A model generated the notes under the pieces. It ran no database searches and was not told where the DNA came from. It saw only the letters and a list, made by a program, of their open reading frames with translations. A stretch of DNA of 38,982 bases from an uncultured Candidatus Saccharibacteria bacterium. Lineage in GTDB: Bacteria > Patescibacteriota > Minisyncoccia > Phycocordibacterales > UBA10002. The stretch covers positions 1 to 38,982 of the forward strand of contig CAYJWA010000002.1 of assembly GCA_964373775.1 (NCBI GenBank), written 5' to 3'. This document shows positions 1 to 38,982 of this stretch, one piece after another (position 1 is the first letter of the stretch; each line of letters opens with the position of its first letter). The translations under genes were made by a program, and so were the position numbers.

Positions 1-55
1 TACCAAAAGCGGTAGATACACTTGACGAATGGTGCACACGAATTTTAGGAAGGCG
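1..55. repeat. Terminal direct repeat. Nt 1-55 recur at 38928-38982 (54/55 identical) and belong to a 42-bp-period tandem repeat.
   Basis: Direct reading: taccaaaagcggtagatacacttgacgaatggtgcacRcgaattttaggaaggcg at both window ends. An extra partial unit lies at 38896-38927. Confidence 0.9.
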
Positions 56-3113: not shown

Positions 3114-3157
3114 GCGTTTGCGGAATACACGGAATAAGAACATGGTAGAACATATCA

Positions 3158-3215
3158 AATTACACCACATCCTCTCTCCGTCAACATCGGGTGTTGACGG
3201 AGATGAGGGTCTTCA
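3158..3215. repeat. MITE-like element, partial copy related to the in-frame element in tgt (7163-7228)
   Basis: aaattacaccacatcctctc...aacatcgggtgtt matches the reverse complement of the tgt element. Internal 11-bp hairpin ctccgtcaaca / tgttgacggag. Confidence 0.7.
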
Positions 3216-3219
3216 ATGA

Positions 3220-3303
3220 TGGGCGAGGTGGGACTTGAACCCACAGTTCCTTTCGGAGCACGGTCCTAAGCCGTGTGCGTTTAGCCAATTTCGCCACTCG
3301 CCC
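3220..3303 (-). tRNA. tRNA-Leu (anticodon UAG), class II with a long variable arm
   Basis: Reverse complement GGGCGAGTGGCGAAATTGGCTAAACGCACACGGCTTAGGACCGTGCTCCGAAAGGAACTGTGGGTTCAAGTCCCACCTCGCCCA. Folds as acceptor 7 bp, anticodon loop CTTAGGA and T-loop TTCAAGT. CCA is not encoded. Confidence 0.9.
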
Positions 3304-3365
3304 AAGGTTAATGTAAACCCAGCACCAGGGTCATCACTGGGCATTTTCATCTTTCAATTACCCTG

Positions 3366-6025: not shown

Positions 6026-6751
6026 TTATTTCGCGTCAGTTCCGTGTTTCCTGTACAGCGGATGCACCGGCACGGCGCGGATTGCGGTAATGACTTCTTC
6101 GTCGCTGTCCGTAATCGTATAGAGTCCGAGGTCTTTTTCGTCAACCGCGTGGTGAAGCAGGAGCATATTTTCCCGCATAAAGCTATTGAGCGGTTCCCAA
6201 AAGTCGCGCCCCACGAGAAAGATCGGCACCCGCCGTATTTTGTGCGTCTGTATGAGCGTGATGAGTTCAAAAAATTCATCAAGCGTGCCGAATCCTCCCG
6301 GAAAGAAAAGGTACGCCTCTGCGGCGAATGAGAGCGCGACTTTTCGCACGAAAAAATAATCAAATTCAACGCTTGCCGTTGTGTATTGGTTGAACTTTTG
6401 GCGTGTGGGAAGACGAATGTTGAGCCCCGCGGATTTGCCGCCTGCTTCAAACGCGCCTCGATTCGCTGCCTCCATAATGCCGGCGCTCCCGCCGGTGAGC
6501 ACTGTGTAGCCAAGTTCTTTTACAATCTTTCCCGCAAGCGCGCGCGCTTTGATATAGTGTTCGCTCTTCTCGGTGAAACGCGACGAGCCAAAAAAGGTGA
6601 CGGAGCGCGGAAATCTGCCGATAAATTCAAACGCTTCGGTGAATTCTTTGTCAATACGAGACACCCGCGCTTTGATTTCGCGCTGTATTTCTTCTTTGGT
6701 AAGAGCGTGTGAAAAGCGCTCGCTGTCGTTCTGATGTCGTGTTGGCGGCAT
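6026..6751 (-). CDS. LOG-family protein (TIGR00730 / lysine-decarboxylase-like; cytokinin riboside 5'-monophosphate phosphoribohydrolase family)
   Basis: VLTGGSAGIMEAANRGA and FFPGGFGTLDEFFE motifs with typical length. Confidence 0.85.
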   Translation of the reverse strand: MPPTRHQNDSERFSHALTKEEIQREIKARVSRIDKEFTEAFEFIGRFPRSVTFFGSSRFTEKSEHYIKARALAGKIVKELGYTVLTGGSAGIMEAANRGAFEAGGKSAGLNIRLPTRQKFNQYTTASVEFDYFFVRKVALSFAAEAYLFFPGGFGTLDEFFELITLIQTHKIRRVPIFLVGRDFWEPLNSFMRENMLLLHHAVDEKDLGLYTITDSDEEVITAIRAVPVHPLYRKHGTDAK

Positions 6752-6834
6752 GTTTGTTTTTCTATTATAGCGATGGGAACGGAAACGAGCAACTTTTTGT
6801 GTGCAAACTGCGCTTTTTTCTTTATACTGTTGCG

Positions 6835-8082
6835 GTGCGATTTCATATTGAAAAGAAAGTGAAAGGGCGAATGGGGCGCGCGGGTATTCTTGAAACCGCG
6901 CACGGCGCTATTCATACGCCGGCTTTTGTCGCGGTGGGGACCAAAGCAACCGTGAAAGCGGTTGCGCCTGATGCGCTTCGTGCCCTCGGTGCCGAAGTCG
7001 TGCTCGGAAATGCCTATCATCTGTATCTTGAGCCCGGGGAGAAAACAGTTGCGCGCGCCGGGGGTTTTGGAAAGTTTATGGGCTGGGACGGGCCCACCAT
7101 GACCGACTCAGGCGGTTTTCAGATATTCTCGCTCGGTGCGGGATTTGGGCGGCACACGGCCAAAATTAGACCACACCTGCACCATTCTAAACATCGGGTG
7201 TTCACCGAGGAGAGGTGTGGTGTAATTTTTGTGCAGATTGATGAAGACGGGGCAATATTCCGCTCGCACCGGGACGGGAGCAAGCATCGGTTTACACCGG
7301 AGCGTTCCATTGAGATTCAACACGCGCTCGGCGCCGACATCATCTTCGCGTTTGACGAGTGCACTTCGCCCGACGCTCCATATAAGTACCAGAAGCAGGC
7401 GATGGAGCGGACGCACCGGTGGGCCCTTCGTTCGCTAGAAGCGAACCGCCGATTAACGCGGATAAGAACGCGGATTGACGCGGATAAATCATATCAGCGC
7501 ACATCAGCGTTACATCAGCGTCCATCTGCGTTATTCGGAATTGTGCAAGGAGGCCGTCACGAAGATTTGAGAAAGCAGAGCGCACGGACAGTTGGCAAGA
7601 TGGATTTCGATGGCTTCGGCATCGGCGGCTCGTTTGGAAGAGAAGATATGGGGAACGCGGTGCGCTCCGTGAATGAAATCCTGCCGGAGGATAAACCACG
7701 GCACTTGCTCGGCATCGGCGGCATTGAAGATTTGTTTTCCGCCGTTGAAAACGGCTGCGACACCTTTGATTGCGTGTCTCCGACGCGCGAAGCGCGCACG
7801 GGTTCGCTGTATACGAAGCGGGGGAGAATAAACATTACCAATGCGCGTTTTCGGACAGAATTTACGCCCATTGATACCGCGTGCGAGTGTTATACATGCT
7901 GTAATTTTACCCGCGCGTATCTCGCACATCTCTTCCGTTCGCGGGAGATTCTCGCGTACTCGCTCGCCTCGGTCCACAATCTTTCGTTTTTCATCAATCT
8001 GGTGCAAAATATGCGACAGGCGATTTTGGGCGGTGTCTTCCACAAGTTTAGAAAAGAATTTTTGCTACACTATAAAAGTTGA
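6835..8082 (+). CDS. tgt: Queuine tRNA-ribosyltransferase
   Basis: (M)RFHIEKKVKGRMGRAGILETAHGAIHTPAFVAVGT aligns with the MKFEL...TPxFMPVGT N-terminus. Also GGFQIFSL, FAFDECT, and the zinc motif CECYTCCNFTRAYLAHL. GTG at 6835 fits orthologue N-termini; alternative ATG at 6871. A TATACT hexamer lies at 6823-6828. Confidence 0.9.
   Translation: MRFHIEKKVKGRMGRAGILETAHGAIHTPAFVAVGTKATVKAVAPDALRALGAEVVLGNAYHLYLEPGEKTVARAGGFGKFMGWDGPTMTDSGGFQIFSLGAGFGRHTAKIRPHLHHSKHRVFTEERCGVIFVQIDEDGAIFRSHRDGSKHRFTPERSIEIQHALGADIIFAFDECTSPDAPYKYQKQAMERTHRWALRSLEANRRLTRIRTRIDADKSYQRTSALHQRPSALFGIVQGGRHEDLRKQSARTVGKMDFDGFGIGGSFGREDMGNAVRSVNEILPEDKPRHLLGIGGIEDLFSAVENGCDTFDCVSPTREARTGSLYTKRGRINITNARFRTEFTPIDTACECYTCCNFTRAYLAHLFRSREILAYSLASVHNLSFFINLVQNMRQAILGGVFHKFRKEFLLHYKS
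7163..7228. repeat. 66-nt MITE-like element with 16-bp terminal inverted repeats, inserted in frame in tgt
   Basis: aaattagaccacacct ... aggtgtggtgtaattt (15/16 complementary). 22 codons with no stop. A related copy lies at 3158-3215. Confidence 0.8.
7452..7531. repeat. Low-complexity inverted repeat array inside tgt (3x ACGCGGATW, then 4x ATC(A/T)GCG)
   Basis: Direct reading. Encodes RLTRIRTRIDADKSYQRTSALHQRPSA. Confidence 0.75.
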
Positions 8083-9188: not shown

Positions 9189-9241
9189 GTGTGGACCGAG
9201 GGGGAGTCAAACCCCAAGAGCGGGCGGTCTCGTCAACCTTA
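9157..9241 (-). ncRNA. Candidate small RNA (~85 nt), family unknown
   Basis: Lies between the promoter at 9248-9275 and the terminator at 9157-9188. Predicted helices GACCG/CGGUC and GGGG-UUUGACU-CCCC. Confidence 0.45.
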
Positions 9242-9247
9242 TGGGGC

Positions 9248-9275
9248 AGTATAGCATTTACTTTGTCCGTGTCAA
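9248..9275 (-). promoter_or_regulatory. Near-consensus promoter TTGACA-N16-TATACT with a perfect DnaA-box 9-mer 6 nt upstream
   Basis: Minus strand reads ttatccaca actcgc ttgaca cggacaaagtaaatgc tatact. Confidence 0.65.
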
Positions 9276-9379
9276 GCGAGTTGTGGATAAGTACCATTCG
9301 CCCCGCCTCACTCAATCTCTCGGCTCTTTATACCATACGGCTTTGTAAGAGTCATCTTCTGCTATATAGTTTTCATGCA

Positions 9380-11677
9380 ATGCAAAAATTCCAGCTGAAA
9401 AGCAAGTTCAGACCCGCTGGTGACCAACCAAAAGCTATTAAGGCATTGGTGGAAGGATTCAAGCGCGGCGAGCGGTATCAAACGCTACTTGGCGTTACCG
9501 GAAGCGGGAAAACCTTCACAGCGGCCAATGTGATTGCGCAGATTCAAAGGCCAACACTGGTGATTGCGCACAATAAAACGCTCGCGGCACAACTTGCGCA
9601 GGAGTACAAAGAGTTTTTTCCGGATAACGCGGTGCATTATTTTGTTTCCTACTACGATTACTACCAGCCGGAGGCGTATCTGCCTATAACCGACACCTAT
9701 ATTGAGAAAGAAGCGCAGATCAACGAGGAGATTGACCGCCTTCGGCACGCGACGACACAGGCGCTTCTCTCGCGCCGAGATGTGATTGTAGTTGCGAGCG
9801 TCTCGTGTATGTATGGGTTGGGAAGTCCCGAGGAATATGAAAAAGTGAATATAAAATTGCAAAAAGGACAGCGCGTCTCTCGCGGCGATGTTTTGCGCGC
9901 GCTCATCGGCATACATTATATACGTACGAACGCAGACCTATCCCCCGGCGAGTGCCGCGCGCTCGGCAATGTGGTGGAGGTAATGCCTCAAAGTGAGCGG
10001 GAGATGTATCGTATTGAGATTAGTGACGAGCTCGTTCAGCGGATTCAAAAGATTGACCCGATTACGCGGAAACTTTTGGAAGAAATAGATGCGTTGTTTA
10101 TTTTTCCGGCAAAACATTTCATCACGCCGGAGGAGGACCGCGCGCGAGCGATTGAGACAATCAAGAGTGAGCTGAAAAACCAGTTGAAGAAATTTGAAAA
10201 AGAGGGGAAATTGCTTGAAGCCGAGCGGCTTAAACGTCGCACCAACTATGACCTCGCGATGATACGCGAAGTCGGCTATTGCAACGGGATTGAAAATTAC
10301 TCACGCCACTTTTCGGGGAAACTCCCCGGCGAACCGCCCGATACCTTGCTTTCATATTTTTCCGCATCTCCAAGGTTCGACCTTAAATCGGGAGAAAGGT
10401 CGAACCTTGGAGATAGTGCAGATTTTTTGACCATCATCGACGAATCTCATGTGACAATTCCACAGCTTCGCGGAATGTATGCGGGGGACAAATCGCGGAA
10501 AGATACGCTTGTCGAACACGGCTTCCGTCTTCCCTCGGCGCGTGACAATCGTCCGTTACAGTTCCACGAGTTTGAGGAGCGGGTAGGGCAAGTGATTTTT
10601 ACCTCGGCGACGCCCGGGCCGTATGAGTTCGAGAAGAGCGGCACAGCAGTTGTCGAGCAGGTCATTAGACCGACTGGATTGGTTGACCCGCAGGTTGAAA
10701 TACGACCGGTAAGCGAGAACTTTTATTCCTCCTTTCCTAAAGGAGGCGCCCCGAATCTTCGAGGGACGGAGGATTTTAAAATCCCTCCTCCGATGTCACA
10801 TCGGAGTGCTCCCTTTAAGAAAGGGAGAAGAGATCGGCAGGGCTACTGCGGACAGATTCAGGACTTTAAAAAATCTACAAGGTCGGACCTTGTAAAAAAA
10901 GAGGGTTATAAAACAGGTTCTTTCACCCGTCTACAAGGTCGGACCTTGTATGGAGGGCAGGTTAAGGATTTCATCGCGGAGGCAGAAAAAGATATCAAAG
11001 CCGGTGGGCGGGTCATTGCGACGACGCTTACGAAGAAAATGGCCGAGGACCTCGCGGCGTTTCTCAAGGAAAAGGGTATCAAAACCGAGTACCTGCACAG
11101 CGACATTTTGACACTGGAGCGGATTATGATTCTGACGCGGTTTCGCAAGGGTGAGTTTGATTGTCTGGTGGGGGTTAATCTTTTGCGCGAAGGGCTGGAC
11201 CTTCCCGAGGTTTCGCTTATCGGCATTTTGGACGCTGACCGCGAGGGGTTTTTGCGTTCGCAGACATCACTCATTCAGATTATTGGTCGCGCGGCGCGCA
11301 ATGTCGCGGGGCGGGTGATTTTGTATGCGGATGTTATTACCGGTTCAATAGAAAAAGCGATTGGCGAGACGAATCGGCGCCGCGCGCTTCAGCTCGCGCA
11401 TAACAAAAAACACGGCATCACGCCGAAAACAATTATCAAAAAAGTGCGTGATATCATCGAAGCCTTCTGCTTGGAGCACGAAAAGGCCGTCAGTCACCTT
11501 ATGGAGATAGACAAAGAAGCGCTGAAAAATAAGACACTCAACCAGTTGCTCAAAGAAAAGAAAGTCCAAATGAACGCGGCAGTCAAAATTCTTGATTTCG
11601 AGACGGCCGCATTGCTCCGCGACGAAATCCGCGAGTTGGAGAAGCTGACACTGCATCCACTTATAATGTATCGCTGA
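9380..11677 (+). CDS. uvrB: Excinuclease ABC subunit B, carrying two in-frame repeat insertions
   Basis: MQKFQLKSKFRPAGDQPKAI...GVTGSGKTF, DESHVT, TLTKKMAEDL, GRAARN and the C-terminal UVR domain. ATG at 9380 fits orthologue N-termini. Confidence 0.95.
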   Translation: MQKFQLKSKFRPAGDQPKAIKALVEGFKRGERYQTLLGVTGSGKTFTAANVIAQIQRPTLVIAHNKTLAAQLAQEYKEFFPDNAVHYFVSYYDYYQPEAYLPITDTYIEKEAQINEEIDRLRHATTQALLSRRDVIVVASVSCMYGLGSPEEYEKVNIKLQKGQRVSRGDVLRALIGIHYIRTNADLSPGECRALGNVVEVMPQSEREMYRIEISDELVQRIQKIDPITRKLLEEIDALFIFPAKHFITPEEDRARAIETIKSELKNQLKKFEKEGKLLEAERLKRRTNYDLAMIREVGYCNGIENYSRHFSGKLPGEPPDTLLSYFSASPRFDLKSGERSNLGDSADFLTIIDESHVTIPQLRGMYAGDKSRKDTLVEHGFRLPSARDNRPLQFHEFEERVGQVIFTSATPGPYEFEKSGTAVVEQVIRPTGLVDPQVEIRPVSENFYSSFPKGGAPNLRGTEDFKIPPPMSHRSAPFKKGRRDRQGYCGQIQDFKKSTRSDLVKKEGYKTGSFTRLQGRTLYGGQVKDFIAEAEKDIKAGGRVIATTLTKKMAEDLAAFLKEKGIKTEYLHSDILTLERIMILTRFRKGEFDCLVGVNLLREGLDLPEVSLIGILDADREGFLRSQTSLIQIIGRAARNVAGRVILYADVITGSIEKAIGETNRRRALQLAHNKKHGITPKTIIKKVRDIIEAFCLEHEKAVSHLMEIDKEALKNKTLNQLLKEKKVQMNAAVKILDFETAALLRDEIRELEKLTLHPLIMYR
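10367..10413. repeat. Perfect 17-bp-stem hairpin element inside uvrB
   Basis: tctccaaggttcgacct (10367-10383), 13-nt loop, aggtcgaaccttggaga (10397-10413). Confidence 0.9.
10712..10954. repeat. 243-nt composite of stacked palindromes inserted in frame in uvrB
   Basis: Hairpins at 10728-10746, 10768-10788, 10790-10804 and 10809-10827, plus 19-bp palindromes at 10876-10894 and 10932-10950. Confidence 0.85.
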
Positions 11678-14088: not shown

Positions 14089-14212
14089 TAGATTAATGTT
14101 GTAAGATTAAGCATAACACAGATTAAAGTTGTAAGATTTAAGTACGACAGTAGAACTCAAAGCCGGATTTCCCTACTTTAATCTTTAATCTTTAATCTGA
14201 AATCTTAAATCT
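14089..14212. repeat. Low-complexity palindromic spacer: 2x ~30-nt AGATTAAWGTTGTAAGATT units facing 4x CTTTAATCT-type units
   Basis: Direct reading. The right-hand units are the reverse complement of AGATTAAAG. Confidence 0.8.
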
Positions 14213-15227: not shown

Positions 15228-17882
15228 ATGCAGCATCAAGGCGATAAAATCATTGTTAAGGGAGCACGGACACATAACCTTAAGAACATCACGGTTGAGA
15301 TGCCGCGCAATAAACTGATTGTATTCACCGGGCTTTCCGGAAGCGGGAAGTCGTCTTTGGCGTTTGATACGATCTTTGCGGAAGGTCAGCGCCGCTATGT
15401 GGAGTCGCTCTCTGCCTACGCGCGGCAGTTCCTGCGGCAGATGCAGAAGCCGGATGTGGACGAGATTATCGGACTCTCGCCGGCCATTTCCATTGACCAA
15501 AAGAGCCGTTCCAACAACCCGCGTTCAACGGTTGCGACCATTACCGAAATTTACGATTATCTGCGCGTCTTGTTTGCGCGCGTCGGGAAACCGCACTGTC
15601 TTCTCTGCGGGCGAGAAATCAAAAAGCTCTCCAACGAAGAAATTAAAGACACCATTTTGGAAGCGGTTGCGCGCGTGCGGAAAAGCGCTGCCGGGCCGAG
15701 GGTTCTTGGCGTCGCCGTGAGCAACGCGAAGCTCAAACTCTACGCGCCCATCGTCGTCGGGCGCAAGGGCGAGTACTACCAGTTGCTCTACGACTTGCTA
15801 GGAAAGGGGTACGCAGCGGTGAAGGTGGACGGTGTTGAGAAAAAACTGCGCGAGCCGATTGTCTTGGAGAAAAACAAGAAGCACGACATTGATGTGTTGG
15901 TAGACGAATTCTTTCTGTCGGAGCTCGCTAGGGGGAGCGACGCGACGAGGGAGCGTCTGCCGGAGGCAATTGAGCGCGCGCTCCACGAATCGGGCGGGCT
16001 CGTGCGCGTAGAAACATCTGCCGAGAGCAAGATTATTTCCGCCAAGTTTATGTGCCCCTACGACGGCTTTTCGTACCCAGAGGTGGAGCCGCGGCTCTTC
16101 TCTTTCAACTCGCCGTACGGCGCGTGTCCGGAATGCAACGGCCTCGGCACGCGGCATTTCTTCGGAGACGAGCCATGCCCGAAATGCAAAGGCGCGCGGC
16201 TGCGCGATGAATCTCTCCATGTCGTGCTCGGAAGCACGACCGCGGACAAGCGCGGACTGGACGCAGACCTACGCGGAAGGGGAAGCGGCGTAAACATTGT
16301 GCAGTTATCGGCCATGTCCATTGCGGATGCATACGACTTTTTCGTGGAGCTGAAGCTCTCGCCGAAGGAGCGGGAAATTGCCAAAGTCGTGCTCCGCGAG
16401 ATTGAGTCGCGACTGCAGTTTATGATTGATGTGGGTATTGAGTACCTCACACTTGACCGGCGGGCGCATACGCTCTCGGGCGGCGAGGCGCAGAGGATTC
16501 GGCTTGCCTCCCAACTGGGGAGCGGGCTCGTGGGCGCCCTGTATGTGCTTGACGAGCCGACCATCGGACTCCACGCGCGAGATAACGCGCGACTCTTGAA
16601 GACCCTTCTGCACCTGCGGGATATCGGGAACACGATTATTGTAGTGGAACATGATGAGGAAACGATTCTTTCCGCGGATTATTTGGTGGATATCGGTCCC
16701 GGAGCCGGCGTGCATGGCGGATACATTGTCGTTGACGGCGATTTGCAAAAGCTGTTGTCGGCAAAGACGAATGCAAGCAAGTCGCTGACACTTTCGTATC
16801 TGCGCGGCGAGGTGGAGATTGAAGTTCCGGAAACGCGCCGCACGCGAGACAAAGGCGCGCTCAAAATCCGCGGCGCAAAGATCTTCAACATACAAAATGT
16901 TTCGGTGGATGTGCCGCTTGGAAAACTGACGGTGATTACCGGCGTATCCGGTTCCGGCAAGTCCTCGTTTCTGTATGAGATTCTGCACAAAAATCTTCAG
17001 GCGCGGTTTGACCGCAGGTACCGAAGCGCTGAAACCTTTCACTGCAGCTCATTTACCGGTACTGAATACCTTTCACGCGCCATTCTCATAGACCAGTCCC
17101 CGATTGGGCGCACGCCACGCTCCAATCCTGCGACCTACACCGGAGCGTGGACATTCATTCGTGGGCTTTTTGCCGAAACTGAGGAGGCGCGCGTGCGCGG
17201 CTGGAGTCCGAGCCGCTTTTCGTTCAATGTGCCCACCGCAGGCGGGTCCGCCTCGGGCGGAAAAGGGGGTAGATGCGAAGCGTGCCAAGGGAACGGCGAG
17301 ATAGCCGTGGAGATGCACTTTCTCCCGACCGTCTATGTCACCTGTGATGTCTGCAATGGCAAGCGATTTATGAAAGAAACGTTGGAGGTGAGGTATAAGA
17401 AAAAAAGCGCCTACGACATACTTCAGATGACGATTGAGGAGTGTCTTGAATTCTTTGAGGATATCCCCGCGGTAGCCGATCGTTTAAAAACTTTAAACGA
17501 TGTAGGCCTAGGGTATCTAGAGTTGGGCCAATCCGCGACGACCCTCTCCGGCGGGGAGGCCCAACGGGTGAAAATATCCTCGGAACTCTATCGTACGCAT
17601 GTCCAAAAGACCATCTATCTTCTGGACGAGCCGACCGTGGGTCTCCACTACGAAGATGTAAAAAAGCTCATTGAGATTCTTCAGAAACTGGTGGACCACG
17701 GAAATACGGTCGTGGTCATTGAGCACAACATGGATGTGATTAAAAGTTCGGACTATGTTATTGACTTCGGGCCGGATGGCGGCGACGGGGGAGGGCAGAT
17801 TATCGCGAAGGGAACGCCGGAAGAAGTTGCAAGCCATAAGAAATCGTACACGGGGGAGTATTTGCGAAAGGCGCTTGGGTAG
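15228..17882 (+). CDS. uvrA: Excinuclease ABC subunit A
   Basis: [34 protein letters not shown], two ABC modules and zinc-finger cysteines. Confidence 0.95.
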
Positions 17883-17960
17883 ATTTAGGATTTATGATTT
17901 AAGATGTAAGAAAAAAACCAGCCGTTCATACCGACACGACTGGCATGGTTCCCTGGACGG

Positions 17961-18385: not shown

Positions 18386-19858
18386 ATGAATAGTCAAGCG
18401 TTTCCCAAGAGGCGAAGGATTTCAAAATCCCTCCCCCCACCGGGTACTCCCTTTAGAAAAGGGAGAATACCCGATACCCCCGGGGTGTATTTCTTTCTTG
18501 GGCGACCGCGAAGCGGTTTAGCCCGAGGGTCTCTACACCCTAAACCCGCAAGGGCGGGTCGGGTTTTGTATATCGGGCGCGCCGCCTCGCTCCGCAATCG
18601 CGTGCGAAGCTATTTCGCACCTGACATCGCGGAGAAGCGAAGCTCGTGGATTGCGAAGATGCTTACCGAGGCGAAGAGTATTAATTTCCGGAAAACCGAT
18701 TCAGTGCTTGAGGCAATTCTCCTTGAGGCATACCTTATCAAAAAACTTCAGCCGCCATACAATACGGAACAGAAAGACGACAAGAGCTTCAACTGCATCG
18801 TCATCACCGACGAGTCGTTTCCCGCGCTTATGGTCGCGCGTCAAAAGAACATAGACTTTTCCTCGGTAAGGATTAAGCCTGCCCGCCGAAACCTCGGCGC
18901 AGGCGGGGATGAAGGATTAAAGATTCGCGCCGTGTACGGTCCTTTCCCGCACGGTGAGGAACTTCAGACCGCGCTTAAAATCATCCGTAAGATTTTTCCC
19001 TTTCGCGACGATACATGTACGCCGTGCCCCCAAAGTATCAGAGGACATTCCAACATTCTCAAGAATGTTGGAATGTTGTGTCGCCCGTGCTTTAACAGGC
19101 AGATAGGACTTTGCCCGGGGGTCTGCACCGGCGAGATACGCGAGCGGGAGTACGCAAAAACAATTCGGAATATCCGGCTCTTTTTTGAGGGGAAAAAACC
19201 GCGACTGCTGAAACTGCTCAAATCAGAAATGAATGCCGCGGCAAAAGCGCAGGAATTTGAAAAAGCTAGCGTAGTTAAAAAAACCATCTTTGCTCTCCAG
19301 CACATCCAAGAGGTCGCCCTCCTCAAAACTTTTAACTTTACACTTTCAACTTTTAACTTCAGGATTGAGGCCTACGACCTCTCGCATTTCGGCGGAAAAG
19401 AAATAGTCGGCGCAATGGCGGTAGTTCTAAACGGCGTCGCGCAAAAAAGCGAGTATCGCCTGTTCAAACTGCGCGGCATCAGGTCGCAAAATGAAGTTGC
19501 CGGTTTGCAGGAAATTATCCGCCGCCGCTTGAATCATCCGGAATGGCTGTTTCCAGATTTGATTGTCGTTGACGGAAACGAGGTCCAGAAAAATGCGGCT
19601 GAAAAGATTCTGAAAGAATGGGGAAGAGTGATTCCGGTTGCCGCGGTCGTGAAAGACGAGCGCCATCGCCCGCGGGAAATTCTTAACAAGATGCTTGCTG
19701 TCGGGCAACCCTCCTACATTCCGAGGAATGTAGGAATATGGAGCGAACAGCAAGAATTACATGCGGCGATTCTTCTGGCGAACAGCGAGGCGCACCGATT
19801 CGTTCTGAAGTTCCAGCGCAGGCAGCGGCTGGTTAAACGAACCGCTGTGAAAAACTGA
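18386..19858 (+). CDS. uvrC: Excinuclease ABC subunit C. Short form with no C-terminal (HhH)2 domain and several in-frame hairpin insertions.
   Basis: GIY-YIG (PGVYFF...VLYIGRA...RNRVRSYF), UVR domain (EFEKASVVKKTIFALQ), endonuclease domain (IEAYDLSHFGG). Ends ~15 aa after SEAHRF. Confidence 0.9.
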   Translation: MNSQAFPKRRRISKSLPPPGTPFRKGRIPDTPGVYFFLGRPRSGLARGSLHPKPARAGRVLYIGRAASLRNRVRSYFAPDIAEKRSSWIAKMLTEAKSINFRKTDSVLEAILLEAYLIKKLQPPYNTEQKDDKSFNCIVITDESFPALMVARQKNIDFSSVRIKPARRNLGAGGDEGLKIRAVYGPFPHGEELQTALKIIRKIFPFRDDTCTPCPQSIRGHSNILKNVGMLCRPCFNRQIGLCPGVCTGEIREREYAKTIRNIRLFFEGKKPRLLKLLKSEMNAAAKAQEFEKASVVKKTIFALQHIQEVALLKTFNFTLSTFNFRIEAYDLSHFGGKEIVGAMAVVLNGVAQKSEYRLFKLRGIRSQNEVAGLQEIIRRRLNHPEWLFPDLIVVDGNEVQKNAAEKILKEWGRVIPVAAVVKDERHRPREILNKMLAVGQPSYIPRNVGIWSEQQELHAAILLANSEAHRFVLKFQRRQRLVKRTAVKN

Positions 19859-20076: not shown

Positions 20077-20266
20077 AAAGCACGAAACACTTTCTTAAAA
20101 CACAAAGCACAGTATCCAAAGAACCAAACAGACTTCACAAAACACAATACATCCACCATTCGGGGGATCTCCCGAAGTGAGACAAAAATCCAAACGAAAA
20201 GGCAAGTTTGTGTTTTGAGTAGTTTGAAGTTTTGTTTGGAAACCGTGCGGTCTGTGTTTTGGAAAG
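20077..20266 (+). repeat. Long structured palindromic element, copy 2 (upstream of rpoB)
   Basis: Core acaaaacacaatacatccaccattcgggggatctcccgaagtgagacaaaaa. The 3' end gtgcggtctgtgttttggaaag is shared with copy 3. Confidence 0.85.
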
Positions 20267-20303
20267 TTGATATGAATATTATTGGTAACGCAGCTCACCC
20301 TAT

Positions 20304-23569: not shown

Positions 23570-23726
23570 GCACAAGCACGAAACAATCTTCTTACAACAC
23601 AAAACACAGTGTCTCCACCCTTCGGGGGATCTCCCGAAGGGAGACAAAAACCCAACGGGGAAATGAGTTTGTGTTTTGAAAAGATTGTGTTTTGTCTGGA
23701 CTTTGTGCGGTCTGTGTTTTGGAAAG
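23570..23726 (+). repeat. Long structured palindromic element, copy 3 (rpoB-rpoC intercistronic)
   Basis: Core acaaaacacagtgtctccacccttcgggggatctcccgaagggagacaaaaa. Starts 3 nt after the rpoB stop. Confidence 0.85.
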
Positions 23727-23770
23727 GGTAAGAAGTTCTTGTTTCGGCTTTGCCAAGTAATCCTTATTGT

Positions 23771-27861: not shown

Positions 27862-28875
27862 ATGAGTTTTTTCACCCCCAAACTCGGAATTGACCTCGGC
27901 ACCGCCAACACCTTGGTGTATGTTCCGGGCAAGGGCATTGTGCTCAATGAGCCGTCCGTGGTGGCGGTCTCCGAGCAGGACAATCGGATTCTTGCGGTCG
28001 GGGATGAGGCGAAGAAGATGGTGGGGAAGACACCGGAAGAGATCGTGGCGTACCGGCCCATGAAAGACGGAGTGATTGCGGACTACCGCGTGACCGAGGC
28101 AATGCTCCGGTACTTTATTACGAAAGCCCTCGGCAGATGGAACATCTGGAAGCCGGAAGTGCTCGTTTCTGTGCCCGCAGGCGTTACTTCAACAGAGCGG
28201 CGCGCCGTGATTGAAGCCGCCATCAAAGCCGGCGCGAAGAACGCGTATGTGGTGAAGGAGCCGATTCTTGCGGCAATCGGCGCGGGCATCCCGATTCACG
28301 AGCCCGTGGGGCACATGATTGTGGACATTGGCGGCGGCACCACCGATGTTGCGGTCATATCGCTCGGCGGCATCGTCTCTTCCACTTCAGTCAAGTGCGC
28401 CGGAAACCGCGTTGATTCCGCAATTGCGGATTACATCAAAAAGACCTTTAACCTCGCGATTGGCGACAAGATGGCGGAAGATGTGAAGATAGAGATCGGC
28501 TCTGCTGTTCCGTTGGAGGAGGAACTCTCCCTCCTGATTAAGGGACGCGACTTCATTACCGGGCTTCCGCGCACCGCAGAGGTGAAGACAAATGAAGTCG
28601 TGAAGGCAATCGGCAGGGAACTGCGGGAGATGATTAAATCAATCAAGGATGTTCTGCAGGAGACGCCGCCGGAGCTCTCTGCGGATATTATTGACCGAGG
28701 GATTATTATGACCGGCGGCTCGTCCCAGTTGCGCAACTTTCCGGAGTTGGTCTTCCGGCGGACCGGCGTGAAAGCAGTGCTCGCGAAAGACGCGCTCTTC
28801 TGCGTGGCAAAGGGCACCGGCATCGCGCTCGCGCACCTGGATACCTACAAGAAGTCAGTCATTGCGAAGAGGTAG
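27862..28875 (+). CDS. mreB: Rod shape-determining actin homologue MreB
   Basis: GIDLGTANTLVY, DIGGGTTDVAV and MTGGSSQLRN. Confidence 0.95.
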   Translation: MSFFTPKLGIDLGTANTLVYVPGKGIVLNEPSVVAVSEQDNRILAVGDEAKKMVGKTPEEIVAYRPMKDGVIADYRVTEAMLRYFITKALGRWNIWKPEVLVSVPAGVTSTERRAVIEAAIKAGAKNAYVVKEPILAAIGAGIPIHEPVGHMIVDIGGGTTDVAVISLGGIVSSTSVKCAGNRVDSAIADYIKKTFNLAIGDKMAEDVKIEIGSAVPLEEELSLLIKGRDFITGLPRTAEVKTNEVVKAIGRELREMIKSIKDVLQETPPELSADIIDRGIIMTGGSSQLRNFPELVFRRTGVKAVLAKDALFCVAKGTGIALAHLDTYKKSVIAKR

Positions 28876-28880
28876 GAGAT

Positions 28881-28985
28881 GCAGAACAGGGAACAGGGAA
28901 CAGGGAACAGGGAACATGAAATATGGAATATGAAATATGAAATAGGGAACAGGGAACATGAAATATGGAACATGAAATATGAAAT
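28881..28985. repeat. Heptamer microsatellite array (15 units of AGGGAAC / ATGAAAT / ATGGAAY), including a 2x 42-nt tandem duplication
   Basis: Direct reading. The 42-nt units lie at 28902-28943 and 28944-28985. Confidence 0.9.
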
Positions 28986-36828: not shown

Positions 36829-37575
36829 ATGACTTTCCACATCATCACTCTCTTCCCCCGCGCCTTTGACTCTTACCTCGGAGAGTCCATCTTACAGCGC
36901 GCCATTCTGGACAAGAAAATCAAGGTGAAGTTTTACAACCCGCGCGACTTCGCCGAAGACAAACACAGACGCATAGATCGCGCGCCGTACGGAGGCGGGC
37001 CCGGGATGGTGATTCAAGCGGAACCGGTACTCAAAGCAGTAGAAACTGCTTTGAGAGATTTAAGATTTAAGATTTATGATTTAAGAAAGAAGAAGCTAAA
37101 CACTAAACGCTCTACGCTAAACGTTTTTCCCAAAATCATCTGGCTATCGCCAAGCGGAAAGCAATTTACGAATGAGACCGGTATAAAATTCGCGCAATGC
37201 AGCGACCTTATCATCATCTGCGGGCGGTACGAGGGGATAGACGCGCGCGTGAAAAAAGTTCTACAAGACACGGCACGAATCCGCCGCGGCGGACGAATAA
37301 AATTGGAAGAGATATCAGTTGGACCGTTTGTGCTGACCGGCGGGGAACTGCCCGCAATGCTTCTGATTGATGTAATATCTCGACAGGTAGAAGGAGTGCT
37401 CGGCGACCCTCGCTCGCGCGAGGAGTCGCGAGTCGCAAGTCCGGAAGTGTACACCCGCCCGGAGGTTTTTCTGTATCGCGGAAAGAAATATCGCGTCCCC
37501 AAAATCCTCCTCTCCGGCCACCACCGGAAAATCGACGAGTGGCGACAAAGAAAAAGGAATTTTACGAGCATCTGA
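36829..37575 (+). CDS. trmD: tRNA (guanine37-N1)-methyltransferase, with two in-frame repeat insertions
   Basis: ITLFPRAF, DRAPYGGGPGMV, CGRYEGIDARV, LTGGELPAM and RPEV...VPKILLSGHH. Confidence 0.95.
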   Translation: MTFHIITLFPRAFDSYLGESILQRAILDKKIKVKFYNPRDFAEDKHRRIDRAPYGGGPGMVIQAEPVLKAVETALRDLRFKIYDLRKKKLNTKRSTLNVFPKIIWLSPSGKQFTNETGIKFAQCSDLIIICGRYEGIDARVKKVLQDTARIRRGGRIKLEEISVGPFVLTGGELPAMLLIDVISRQVEGVLGDPRSREESRVASPEVYTRPEVFLYRGKKYRVPKILLSGHHRKIDEWRQRKRNFTSI

Positions 37576-37602
37576 TTCTCGTAACGAGAATCAGATGCTC
37601 GT
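37564..37602. terminator. Perfect 39-nt palindrome spanning the stop codons of convergent trmD and the MFS gene
   Basis: acgagcatctgattctcgt-a-acgagaatcagatgctcgt: 19-bp arms with no mismatch. Confidence 0.85.
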
Positions 37603-38822: not shown

Positions 38823-38895
38823 TGGCGACAGAAATCTTTGCTGTGTGCGGATGGACGGGCCCGTTCGTTCATAGCAGATACGTTTAACGAATAGA

Positions 38896-38982
38896 GGTAG
38901 ATACACTTGACGAATGGTGCACACGAATACCAAAAGCGGTAGATACACTTGACGAATGGTGCACGCGAATTTTAGGAAGGCG
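38896..38982. repeat. 42-bp-period tandem repeat at the window end (about 2 units), continuous with nt 1-55
   Basis: ggtagatacacttgacgaatggtgcacacgaa at 38896-38927, then taccaaaagc + the same core at 38928-38969. Confidence 0.9.

Follow-up and report, generated by a model that had tools for sequence, protein, structure and literature searches.

We describe a palindromic repeat inside a protein-coding gene of an uncultured Candidatus Saccharibacteria bacterium (Patescibacteriota; Minisyncoccia). The window that we analyzed is a stretch of 38,982 nt (GenBank assembly GCA_964373775.1, contig CAYJWA010000002.1, positions 1 to 38,982 of the forward strand), and the gene is tgt, which encodes queuine tRNA-ribosyltransferase (coding sequence 6835-8082, plus strand). 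At about 7162-7229, within the reading frame, tgt carries a segment with near-perfect inverted arms that belongs to a dispersed palindromic repeat family, here named F1. Together with parallel cases in uvrB and uvrC, it places short coding palindromes similar to the Rickettsia palindromic elements (RPEs) in a candidate-phyla-radiation genome. We consider it likely that the segment is a non-autonomous palindromic repeat, of the kind of the repetitive extragenic palindromes (REPs), the miniature transposable elements with inverted repeats (MITEs) or the RPEs, which occupies a permissive loop of the Tgt protein and has been maintained or refreshed there by insertion or gene conversion. Sequence comparison suggests that the tgt segment is probably a composite F1 copy.

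An inverted repeat in the reading frame of tgt

The arms aaattagaccacacct (7163-7178) and aggtgtggtgtaattt (7213-7228) are complementary at 15/16 positions with 34 nt between them, exactly as a preliminary description of this DNA had it. An inverted-repeat scan lengthens them by one base, to 7162-7178 and 7213-7229, with 16/17 pairing and the arms still 34 nt apart. Read along the plus strand, the segment begins with the left arm AAAATTAGACCACACCT (7162-7178), which encodes K-I-R-P-H and is 16/17 complementary to the right arm AGGTGTGGTGTAATTTT (7213-7229), encoding R-C-G-V-I. Between the two lie an inner left segment GCACCATTCTA (7179-7189), the family core AACA-TCGGG-TGTT, a mini-hairpin that encodes KHRV (7190-7202), and an inner right stem CACCGAGGAG (7203-7212). 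The two inner stretches do not pair with each other. Codons begin at 7162, and 7162-7227 is read as the peptide KIRPHLHHSKHRVFTEERCGVI, stop-free and in frame within the open reading frame (ORF) 6709-8082. The earlier statement that the element makes up 66 nt, or 22 codons without a stop, holds for the frame and for the absence of stops, but the limits of the element are uncertain by 1-2 nt because of A/T runs at both ends, and the equation of 66 nt with 22 codons is for that reason no independent observation.

The window contains nine inverted repeats of at least 15 bp (at most one mismatch, loop of at most 40 nt), where 0.03 are found per dinucleotide shuffle; for a minimum of 12 bp, the numbers are 16 and 0.57. 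The 16-mer arm occurs three times with up to three mismatches, where 0.19 occurrences are expected. RNA folding of 7155-7236 (82 nt) predicts a structure of -29 kcal/mol (z = -3.3). The segment is identical across the Logan assemblies of four independent runs, and an assembly artifact is thus unlikely; no contig that skips or lacks 7162-7229 was seen in six runs, contigs being prone to drop rare variants, so that a minority allele could escape. Scanned with Rfam 15 at the gathering threshold, the whole window yielded two tRNAs only, and 7100-7300 at a permissive threshold gave nothing better than E = 8. A promoter and terminator scan of the window did not flag the element, since its loop is too long for the rule of the scan.

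The host gene is a conserved one. Its ORF is open from 6709, and comparison with homologs places the true start probably at the GTG at 6835 (MRFHIEKK). The product matches PF01702 and aligns to Zymomonas mobilis Tgt with E = 1e-97; its closest non-self homologs, from Taylorbacteria-like and other Parcubacteria metagenome-assembled genomes (MAGs), are 68-71% identical. We assign the source genome to the Parcubacteria (Paceibacterota, Taylorbacteria-like). The DSGGFQ and DEC motifs, the nucleophile Asp and the CxCxxC...H zinc site all fall in invariant columns of the homolog alignment, and on this basis the enzyme looks functional. Against Z. mobilis Tgt, residues 101-134 stand opposite just five residues, so that the protein has ~29 residues more than solved Tgt structures. 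This excess corresponds to a lineage-specific hypervariable loop of 36 aa, GAGFGRHTAKIRPHLHHSKHRVFTEERCGVIFVQID (7135-7242, plus strand), between GGFQIFSL and EDGAIFRS.

An AlphaFold2 model of the protein (36-sequence alignment) reached a mean predicted local distance difference test score (pLDDT) of 84 and a predicted template modeling score of 0.85. Its sole long segment with pLDDT below 50 comprises residues 109-140 of the modeled protein, P0001 (nt 7123-7218), and the palindromic element corresponds to residues 122-143. To judge from the model, a conserved enzyme here has what seems to be a disordered loop on its surface, in agreement with the placement first proposed for the segment. Because the catalytic and zinc-binding residues lie elsewhere and are intact, Tgt would tolerate the 22-aa stretch. 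If the region 7150-7240 is translated through, VFTEER and CGVIFVQIDEDGAIFR are among the predicted Tgt peptides.

A second variable site in tgt, at 7456-7533, is also an imperfect palindrome in frame, with three copies of ACGCGGAT opposite four of ATC(A/T)GCG(T/C). It encodes LTRIRTRIDADKSYQRTSALHQRPSA and adds ~17 residues with respect to Z. mobilis Tgt. Metagenome depth over this site is 231 versus 59.5, which indicates other copies.

The dispersed family F1

F1 copies share a layout in which an arm of 14-16 nt, AAATTACACCACAC(C), is followed by a variable, pyrimidine-rich stem of 9-11 nt, the AACA-TCGGG-TGTT core, the complementary stem and the inverted arm, the full unit being ~65 nt long. 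In the source metagenomes (four runs), where copies in the source genome were seen as Logan contig pieces with 30-nt flanks, we found ~10 F1 loci at genome-like depth, in addition to one at 3157-3203 of the window. Three to four other contigs match the tgt copy, and they match 7188/7190-7228/7231 alone, with 85-93% identity and unrelated flanks; in run X1, contigs sharing this block have depths of 39, 112 and 63, and the tgt contig itself has 59.5. Beyond 7228-7231 the other genomic copies are no longer similar. The block 7188-7231 thus includes the core, the inner right stem and the right arm, and what tgt has in common with the other genomic copies is the right ~40 nt only.

The copy in the window (3157-3203, plus strand) is the intergenic relative that the preliminary description had reported, now placed more precisely. 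It lies 15 nt downstream of the 3' end of a tRNA-Leu gene (minus strand, 3218-3304) and consists of an arm and a perfect 12-bp stem around a TCGGG loop. Its head AAATTACACCACA is the same as the tgt arm at 13/13 positions, its core AACATCGGGTGTT (3183-3195) is the same as that of tgt, and 39 nt of it are 74% complementary to 7190-7228; a good right arm is missing. Metagenome depth climbs from 54 to 370 across 3157-3197, which points to about six further F1 copies, among them a tandem pair at a distance of 50 nt. Arrays of the TIGR or CRISPR type were considered for such tandem copies and rejected, a hairpin with a 16-mer in both orientations being a poor fit. One 428-nt contig was matched by both the tgt and the intergenic queries. 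Its left flank, CAAAAC-AAATTACACCACACCCCTTCCCTG, indicates a full-length unit of ~65 nt with both arms.

We also scanned a gapped two-arm F1 pattern against 185,579 species genomes, a collection that does not include the source genome, and against a metagenome collection. The former gave one match (L001) and the latter four loci. L001, L082 and L084/L085 are intergenic perfect hairpins closed by F1 arms. Their interiors are unrelated, no frame through them is free of stops, and A/T runs flank the stem; the L082 hairpin directly follows an rpoD-like gene. The remaining locus, L083, is AT-rich and was set aside as probably a chance match. L084 (1798-1868) and L085 (404-474) represent the same 71-nt hairpin locus in two metagenome samples, the records being reverse complements of each other.

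The Tgt loop does not owe its length to the repeat

The region of Tgt was described earlier as expanded, by comparison with Escherichia coli. This is correct with respect to solved structures such as that of Z. mobilis, but the element is not the cause: the loop between GGFQ.FSL and (E/D)DG has 30-74 aa in 67/67 Parcubacteria Tgt loci of the species collection, and removing 22 aa would leave the loop of the window shorter than that of any relative. With 36 aa, its length is typical of these loci, and several clades keep a conserved loop of exactly this size, GAAFGSKVGKLSKV...AGKLAKID. The K-I that opens the tgt "element" is the near-invariant SK(I/V/L) of the relatives' loop. Indeed, the nine codons 7162-7188 align without gaps to the loop of L017 (aag att aca cca cac aaa caa cat tct), with 21/27 identical positions (SKITPHKQHS in L017 versus AKIRPHLHHS in the window), and to that of L208, with 18/27. 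The tgt left arm is orthologous to AAGATTACACCACAC in the L017 loop. The 11-mer ATTACACCACA was found nowhere else in ~0.56 Mb of relatives' Tgt loci; the core sequence AACATCGGG(T/G)G is also seen in relatives' Tgt loops, where it makes up the two arms of hairpins in L012 and L002 and is present in L087 as two direct copies. Inherited loop sequence, already similar to an F1 arm, thus makes up the left third of the "element". In L017 and L208 this left part continues into CATTCT, the start of a different palindrome, and the same six nucleotides, the first of the F2 palindrome described below, stand in the inner left segment of the window.

These comparisons bear on the most literal account of the segment, in which a complete 66-nt MITE transposed recently and cleanly into a short loop like that of E. 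coli, and alone accounts for the expansion. Both arms are present, a full-length two-arm copy exists elsewhere in the genome, and the length is divisible by three; all of these would be expected. However, every Parcubacteria relative has a loop of 30-74 aa, the left 27 nt have orthologous counterparts in the relatives' loops, the inner stems are unpaired and no target-site duplication is visible. We therefore regard this account as improbable. Of the MITE-like insertion put forward earlier, membership in a dispersed palindromic family and translation in frame are retained, but the left 27 nt are inherited and only 7188-7231 matches other copies. The preliminary description had set against its own proposal the case of relatives that share the segment as protein and lack symmetry in their DNA: the protein is indeed shared in part, but relatives also carry DNA palindromes at this place.

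The age of the left arm could also suggest that the inverted repeat was born in place, hairpin-templated strand switching having copied the ancestral left arm without any dispersed element. The left arm is older than the right one, being common to L017 and L208, and the arms are near-perfect while the interior is not. Nevertheless, the block found at other loci with unrelated flanks contains the core and the inner right stem besides the arm, and arms of the same sequence occur in other genomes, which makes an origin in place very improbable. One further idea about the interior, that the 11-nt inner left segment had been reshaped to avoid an in-frame TAA of the right arm, was dropped: a symmetric 66-nt unit entered from codon position 2 is stop-free anyway.

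Stems of 10-17 bp are present in 11/67 of the relatives' Tgt loops, against a mean of 7 bp and a maximum of 11 bp in same-length windows elsewhere in the same genes. As described in the next section, these palindromes are of different families. From the alignments, the Tgt loop appears as a permissive site that has been occupied repeatedly by different palindrome families in related lineages.

Other palindrome families in Tgt, UvrB and UvrC

The palindrome that begins with CATTCT, F2, has the form CATTCYRAYRTTCT-NN-AGAAYRTYRGAATG and encodes HS(D/N)IL.N(V/I)(R/G)M in the Tgt loops of L005, L007, L017 and L030. Related palindromes in the loops of L062 and L079 fall just outside the pattern. In the window, F2 is found in uvrC (ORF 18386-19858), where a perfect 30-nt palindrome, CATTCCAACATTCTCAAGAATGTTGGAATG (19046-19075), is read in frame as ...SIRG-HSNILKNVGM-LCRPC... 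The Tgt loop of L007 has an F2 palindrome identical to this one, and the F2 palindromes of L005, L017 and L030 are identical to it or nearly so. A second related peptide, SYIPRNVGI, occurs near the C-terminus of UvrC (about 19760-19790).

In species genomes F2 has at least 120 loci, almost all in Patescibacteria of many classes, plus a few MAGs of the Planctomycetes-Verrucomicrobia-Chlamydiae (PVC) group. Of the 88 occurrences in the 80 loci that we read, open frames of 200 aa or more hold 20, and frames shorter than 80 aa hold 38. Across genomes F2 is read in all three frames (HSNILxNVGM, IPTFxRMLEC, TFQHSxECWNV), which is the signature of an element acting at the DNA level and not of a selected peptide. 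F2 was also seen in MAGs labeled Verrucomicrobia, Kiritimatiellia, Phycisphaerae and Bdellovibrionales (L098, L117, L127, L129, L137, L143, L156 and L161-L163), several times inside long open frames; these could be Patescibacteria contigs contaminating the bins, or the family could have a wider range.

Two further families are shared with L086, a syntenic relative whose genes run in the order DUF456, LOG, tgt, Ser-hydrolase, uvrB. Its Tgt loop holds an F3 palindrome, ACGAGCATCTGATTCTCGTgACGAGAATCAGATGCTCGT, translated as RASDSRDENQMLV, which is 38/39 identical to an intergenic palindrome of the window (37564-37602; 19+1+19). The latter lies between the convergent trmD and major facilitator superfamily (MFS) genes, in terminator position. 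F4, TACAAGGTCSGACCTTGTA, has three intergenic copies in the window (630, 5934 and 5990) and two in uvrB (10876 and 10932; ORF 9191-11677). The latter two, copies of TACAAGGTCGGACCTTGTA at 10876-10950, sit inside an 81-aa insertion with respect to Bacillus caldotenax UvrB. At 10366-10414 of the same gene, a palindrome with a 19-bp stem coincides exactly with an 18-aa insertion. In L086 the F4 pair of uvrB is found at the same place and is likewise spaced by 56 nt; its two palindromes agree with those of the window at 17/19 and 19/19 positions, whereas the 37 nt that separate them are unrelated. The two genomes also have an F4 copy in common in the orthologous DUF456/LOG spacer. The comparison suggests either that the palindromes are under selection or that they evolve in concert while the family consensus is conserved. 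Another syntenic relative (P0009) has a UvrB of normal length, 673 aa, and a Tgt loop of 36 aa.

Every palindrome-bearing Tgt loop keeps the reading frame, and so do both uvrB insertions, which argues for translation through these segments and not for their removal. Removal is what one would expect of an intervening sequence, which would be kept out of the mature product by excision from the RNA, by translational bypass or by protein splicing. The stable hairpin in tgt resembles structures of programmed bypassing, and nothing more direct speaks for this view. A removed sequence need be neither stop-free nor frame-keeping, as these segments are, and the domain scan of the window ORFs and Rfam gave no signature of inteins or introns; we hold it to be extremely improbable.

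A more serious rival is that the hairpin in tgt is a selected nucleic-acid signal (for pausing or termination, for mRNA stability, or as the site of a dimeric protein) with the peptide as a by-product. Loop hairpins recur among the relatives with compensatory differences between genomes, the F4 palindromes of uvrB and of the DUF456/LOG spacer are conserved beside an unrelated 37-nt spacer, and F2 is conserved over many classes of Patescibacteria. Moreover, intergenic family members lie where terminators are expected, that is after tRNA-Leu, between convergent genes and, in L082, after an rpoD-like gene. However, a strong loop hairpin is absent from 56/67 relatives, the family of the palindromes found at this site differs between lineages, and the inner stem of the tgt copy is degenerate. 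In addition, the copy matches no Rfam family and no terminator-like pattern, and a terminator within an essential-looking ORF would be harmful. A signal function of the tgt copy is therefore in our view unlikely, although less so than a clean transposition.

A broader proposal, which we put forward only tentatively and at less than even chances, is that Patescibacteria carry superphylum-wide families of short, near-perfect palindromes (F1-F4) that are functional or actively homogenized, are embedded in frame in loops of Tgt, UvrB and UvrC, and are kept more strictly than the surrounding coding sequence. They would act at the DNA or RNA level, as terminators, sites of a conserved protein or sites for a mobilization machinery. 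The tgt hairpin would then be one example of such a system, so far undescribed in this group, and would not be junk.

Other repeats in the window

Several further repeats were noted. One of ~130-160 nt has three copies of about 75% identity (1120-1290, 20090-20280 and 23570-23745), which lie directly upstream of the gene at 1217, of rpoB and of rpoC. It has a central hairpin, CTTCGGGGGATCTCCCGAAG, and long inverted arms, AAAACACA... and ...TGTGTTTT, and may represent a palindromic element of larger size, or else a leader or promoter region that the genes share. Heptamer arrays resembling microsatellites consist of GGGAACA/ATGAAAT after mreB and of AGATTTA/CTTTAAT, in both orientations, in several intergenic regions; the arrays are located at 28871-28985, 14090-14212, 37056-37101, 17881-17920 and 957-996. 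The ends of the window (1-55 and 38928-38982) are 98% identical over 55 nt, and at the 3' end (also 38886-38940) there is a tandem copy of 42 nt. The contig probably ended because it ran into a repeat; its housekeeping genes make a small circular molecule unlikely.

Discussion

The tgt segment and its counterparts most resemble the RPEs, of which ten families of about 150 bp are known, with 44 copies in Rickettsia conorii, nearly half of them in frame in ORFs (Ogata et al. 2000, 2002, as reviewed in PMC10969869). As in that system, dispersed palindromes occur both between genes and in frame in unrelated housekeeping genes of small-genome, host-dependent bacteria, where they are translated as extra peptide segments compatible with the fold. 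In-frame, fold-compatible placement in a conserved gene is found for the tgt copy, with parallels in uvrB and uvrC. In contrast to the RPEs, which measure about 100-150 bp and are Rickettsia-specific with a conserved peptide per family, the elements described here are set apart by size and host, being 30-66 nt long and found in Patescibacteria, and F2 at least is read in all three frames. Furthermore, the copy in tgt is no clean insertion but probably a composite, set in a loop whose expansion is ancestral.

REPs and their doublets, the REPINs, are palindromes tagged with GTAG or CGTC and mobilized by RAYT (REP-associated tyrosine) transposases, and are extragenic by definition (PMC3733652). 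F1 is similar in size (20-70 nt) and in that it comprises imperfect palindromes, several per genome, as singlets, inverted doublets or tandem pairs, often just downstream of genes and without discernible target-site duplication. It differs in lacking a GTAG or CGTC head, the conserved head being AAATTACACCACAC and the ends reading AAATTACACC..., and in having a copy inside a gene, tgt, while its other members are intergenic. No RAYT (IS200/IS605-like) gene was seen in the 39-kb window.

Bacterial MITEs that occur within genes include ERIC/RU (PMC2759123) and Correia, BOX and the terminator-like SPRITE (PMC10969869). F1 shares with them terminal inverted repeats, a small size, the lack of coding capacity of its own, occasional in-frame fusions to ORFs, and terminator-like hairpins between A and T runs. 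The 16/17-bp arms of the tgt copy bound 66-68 nt, and the family has multiple dispersed copies. Unlike in MITEs, the interior varies between copies while the arms and the loop stay conserved.

The DNA uptake sequences of Pasteurellaceae and Neisseriaceae (USS, uptake signal sequences, and DUS, DNA uptake sequences) form one motif per lineage, in hundreds to thousands of copies, with inverted pairs at terminators and in coding regions. The palindromes of the window are likewise short motifs found at terminators and in permissive coding frames and conserved beyond neutral expectation, but several families coexist here at low copy number. In the literature that we searched, a limited collection and hence weak evidence of novelty, we found no description of in-frame palindromic repeats in Patescibacteria.

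As the simplest history for a palindromic repeat maintained or refreshed in the Tgt loop, we propose the following. In a clade-specific, disordered loop, an added segment would simply be translated, here into a His/Arg-rich stretch of 22 aa. The older loop of this lineage would have contained an F1-like arm and, after it, the first part of an F2 palindrome. The half of an F1 copy that comprises the core and the right arm would then have been attached to this sequence, or written over it, through insertion or gene conversion from another genomic copy. Alternatively, a whole F1 copy may have come first, onto an older repeat-derived loop, with conversion following. We infer this order of events, and likewise that F1 DNA spreads as a non-autonomous element or by recombination and that the 22-aa peptide has no function of its own.

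Several observations weigh against this proposal. Of the marks of a MITE, F1 demonstrably has the arms, the size and the copy number. No empty site was found among the database relatives, the closest Tgt being just 71% identical and having a different palindrome there; no target-site duplication is discernible, since A/T runs continuous with the AAATT/AATTT ends are all that is common to the sequences flanking the tgt copy, C1, L001, L082 and L084; and the domain scan of ten window ORFs revealed no transposase or parent insertion sequence with matching ends. With the loop at its typical 36 aa, a plain gain of 66 nt would have to be offset by a deletion about as large. The relatives' loops share the left 27 nt, and the non-complementary inner stems mean that the tgt copy is no pristine member of the family. 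Finally, the uvrB palindromes, kept in a relative of 71% identity beside an unrelated spacer, are perhaps selected and not merely tolerated.

In-frame, protein-coding palindromes have so far been treated as a peculiarity of Rickettsia. The Parcubacteria case suggests that they are more general in reduced, host-dependent genomes. It is distinctive for its much shorter elements, for families that are common to terminator-like intergenic sites and enzyme loops, and for a single Tgt loop invaded by different families in different lineages. Such palindromes account for part of the odd insertions and low-complexity peptides in Patescibacteria proteins (HSNILKNVGM, SDSRNENQ, LTRIRTRID), and annotators and structure predictors should be aware that segments of this kind are repeat-derived. 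They are also markers of repeat turnover. The interest of the tgt copy lies mainly in the wider pattern that it exposes: if the palindromes are selected, as the uvrB comparison hints, they would constitute an undescribed DNA or RNA signal system in a major uncultured radiation.

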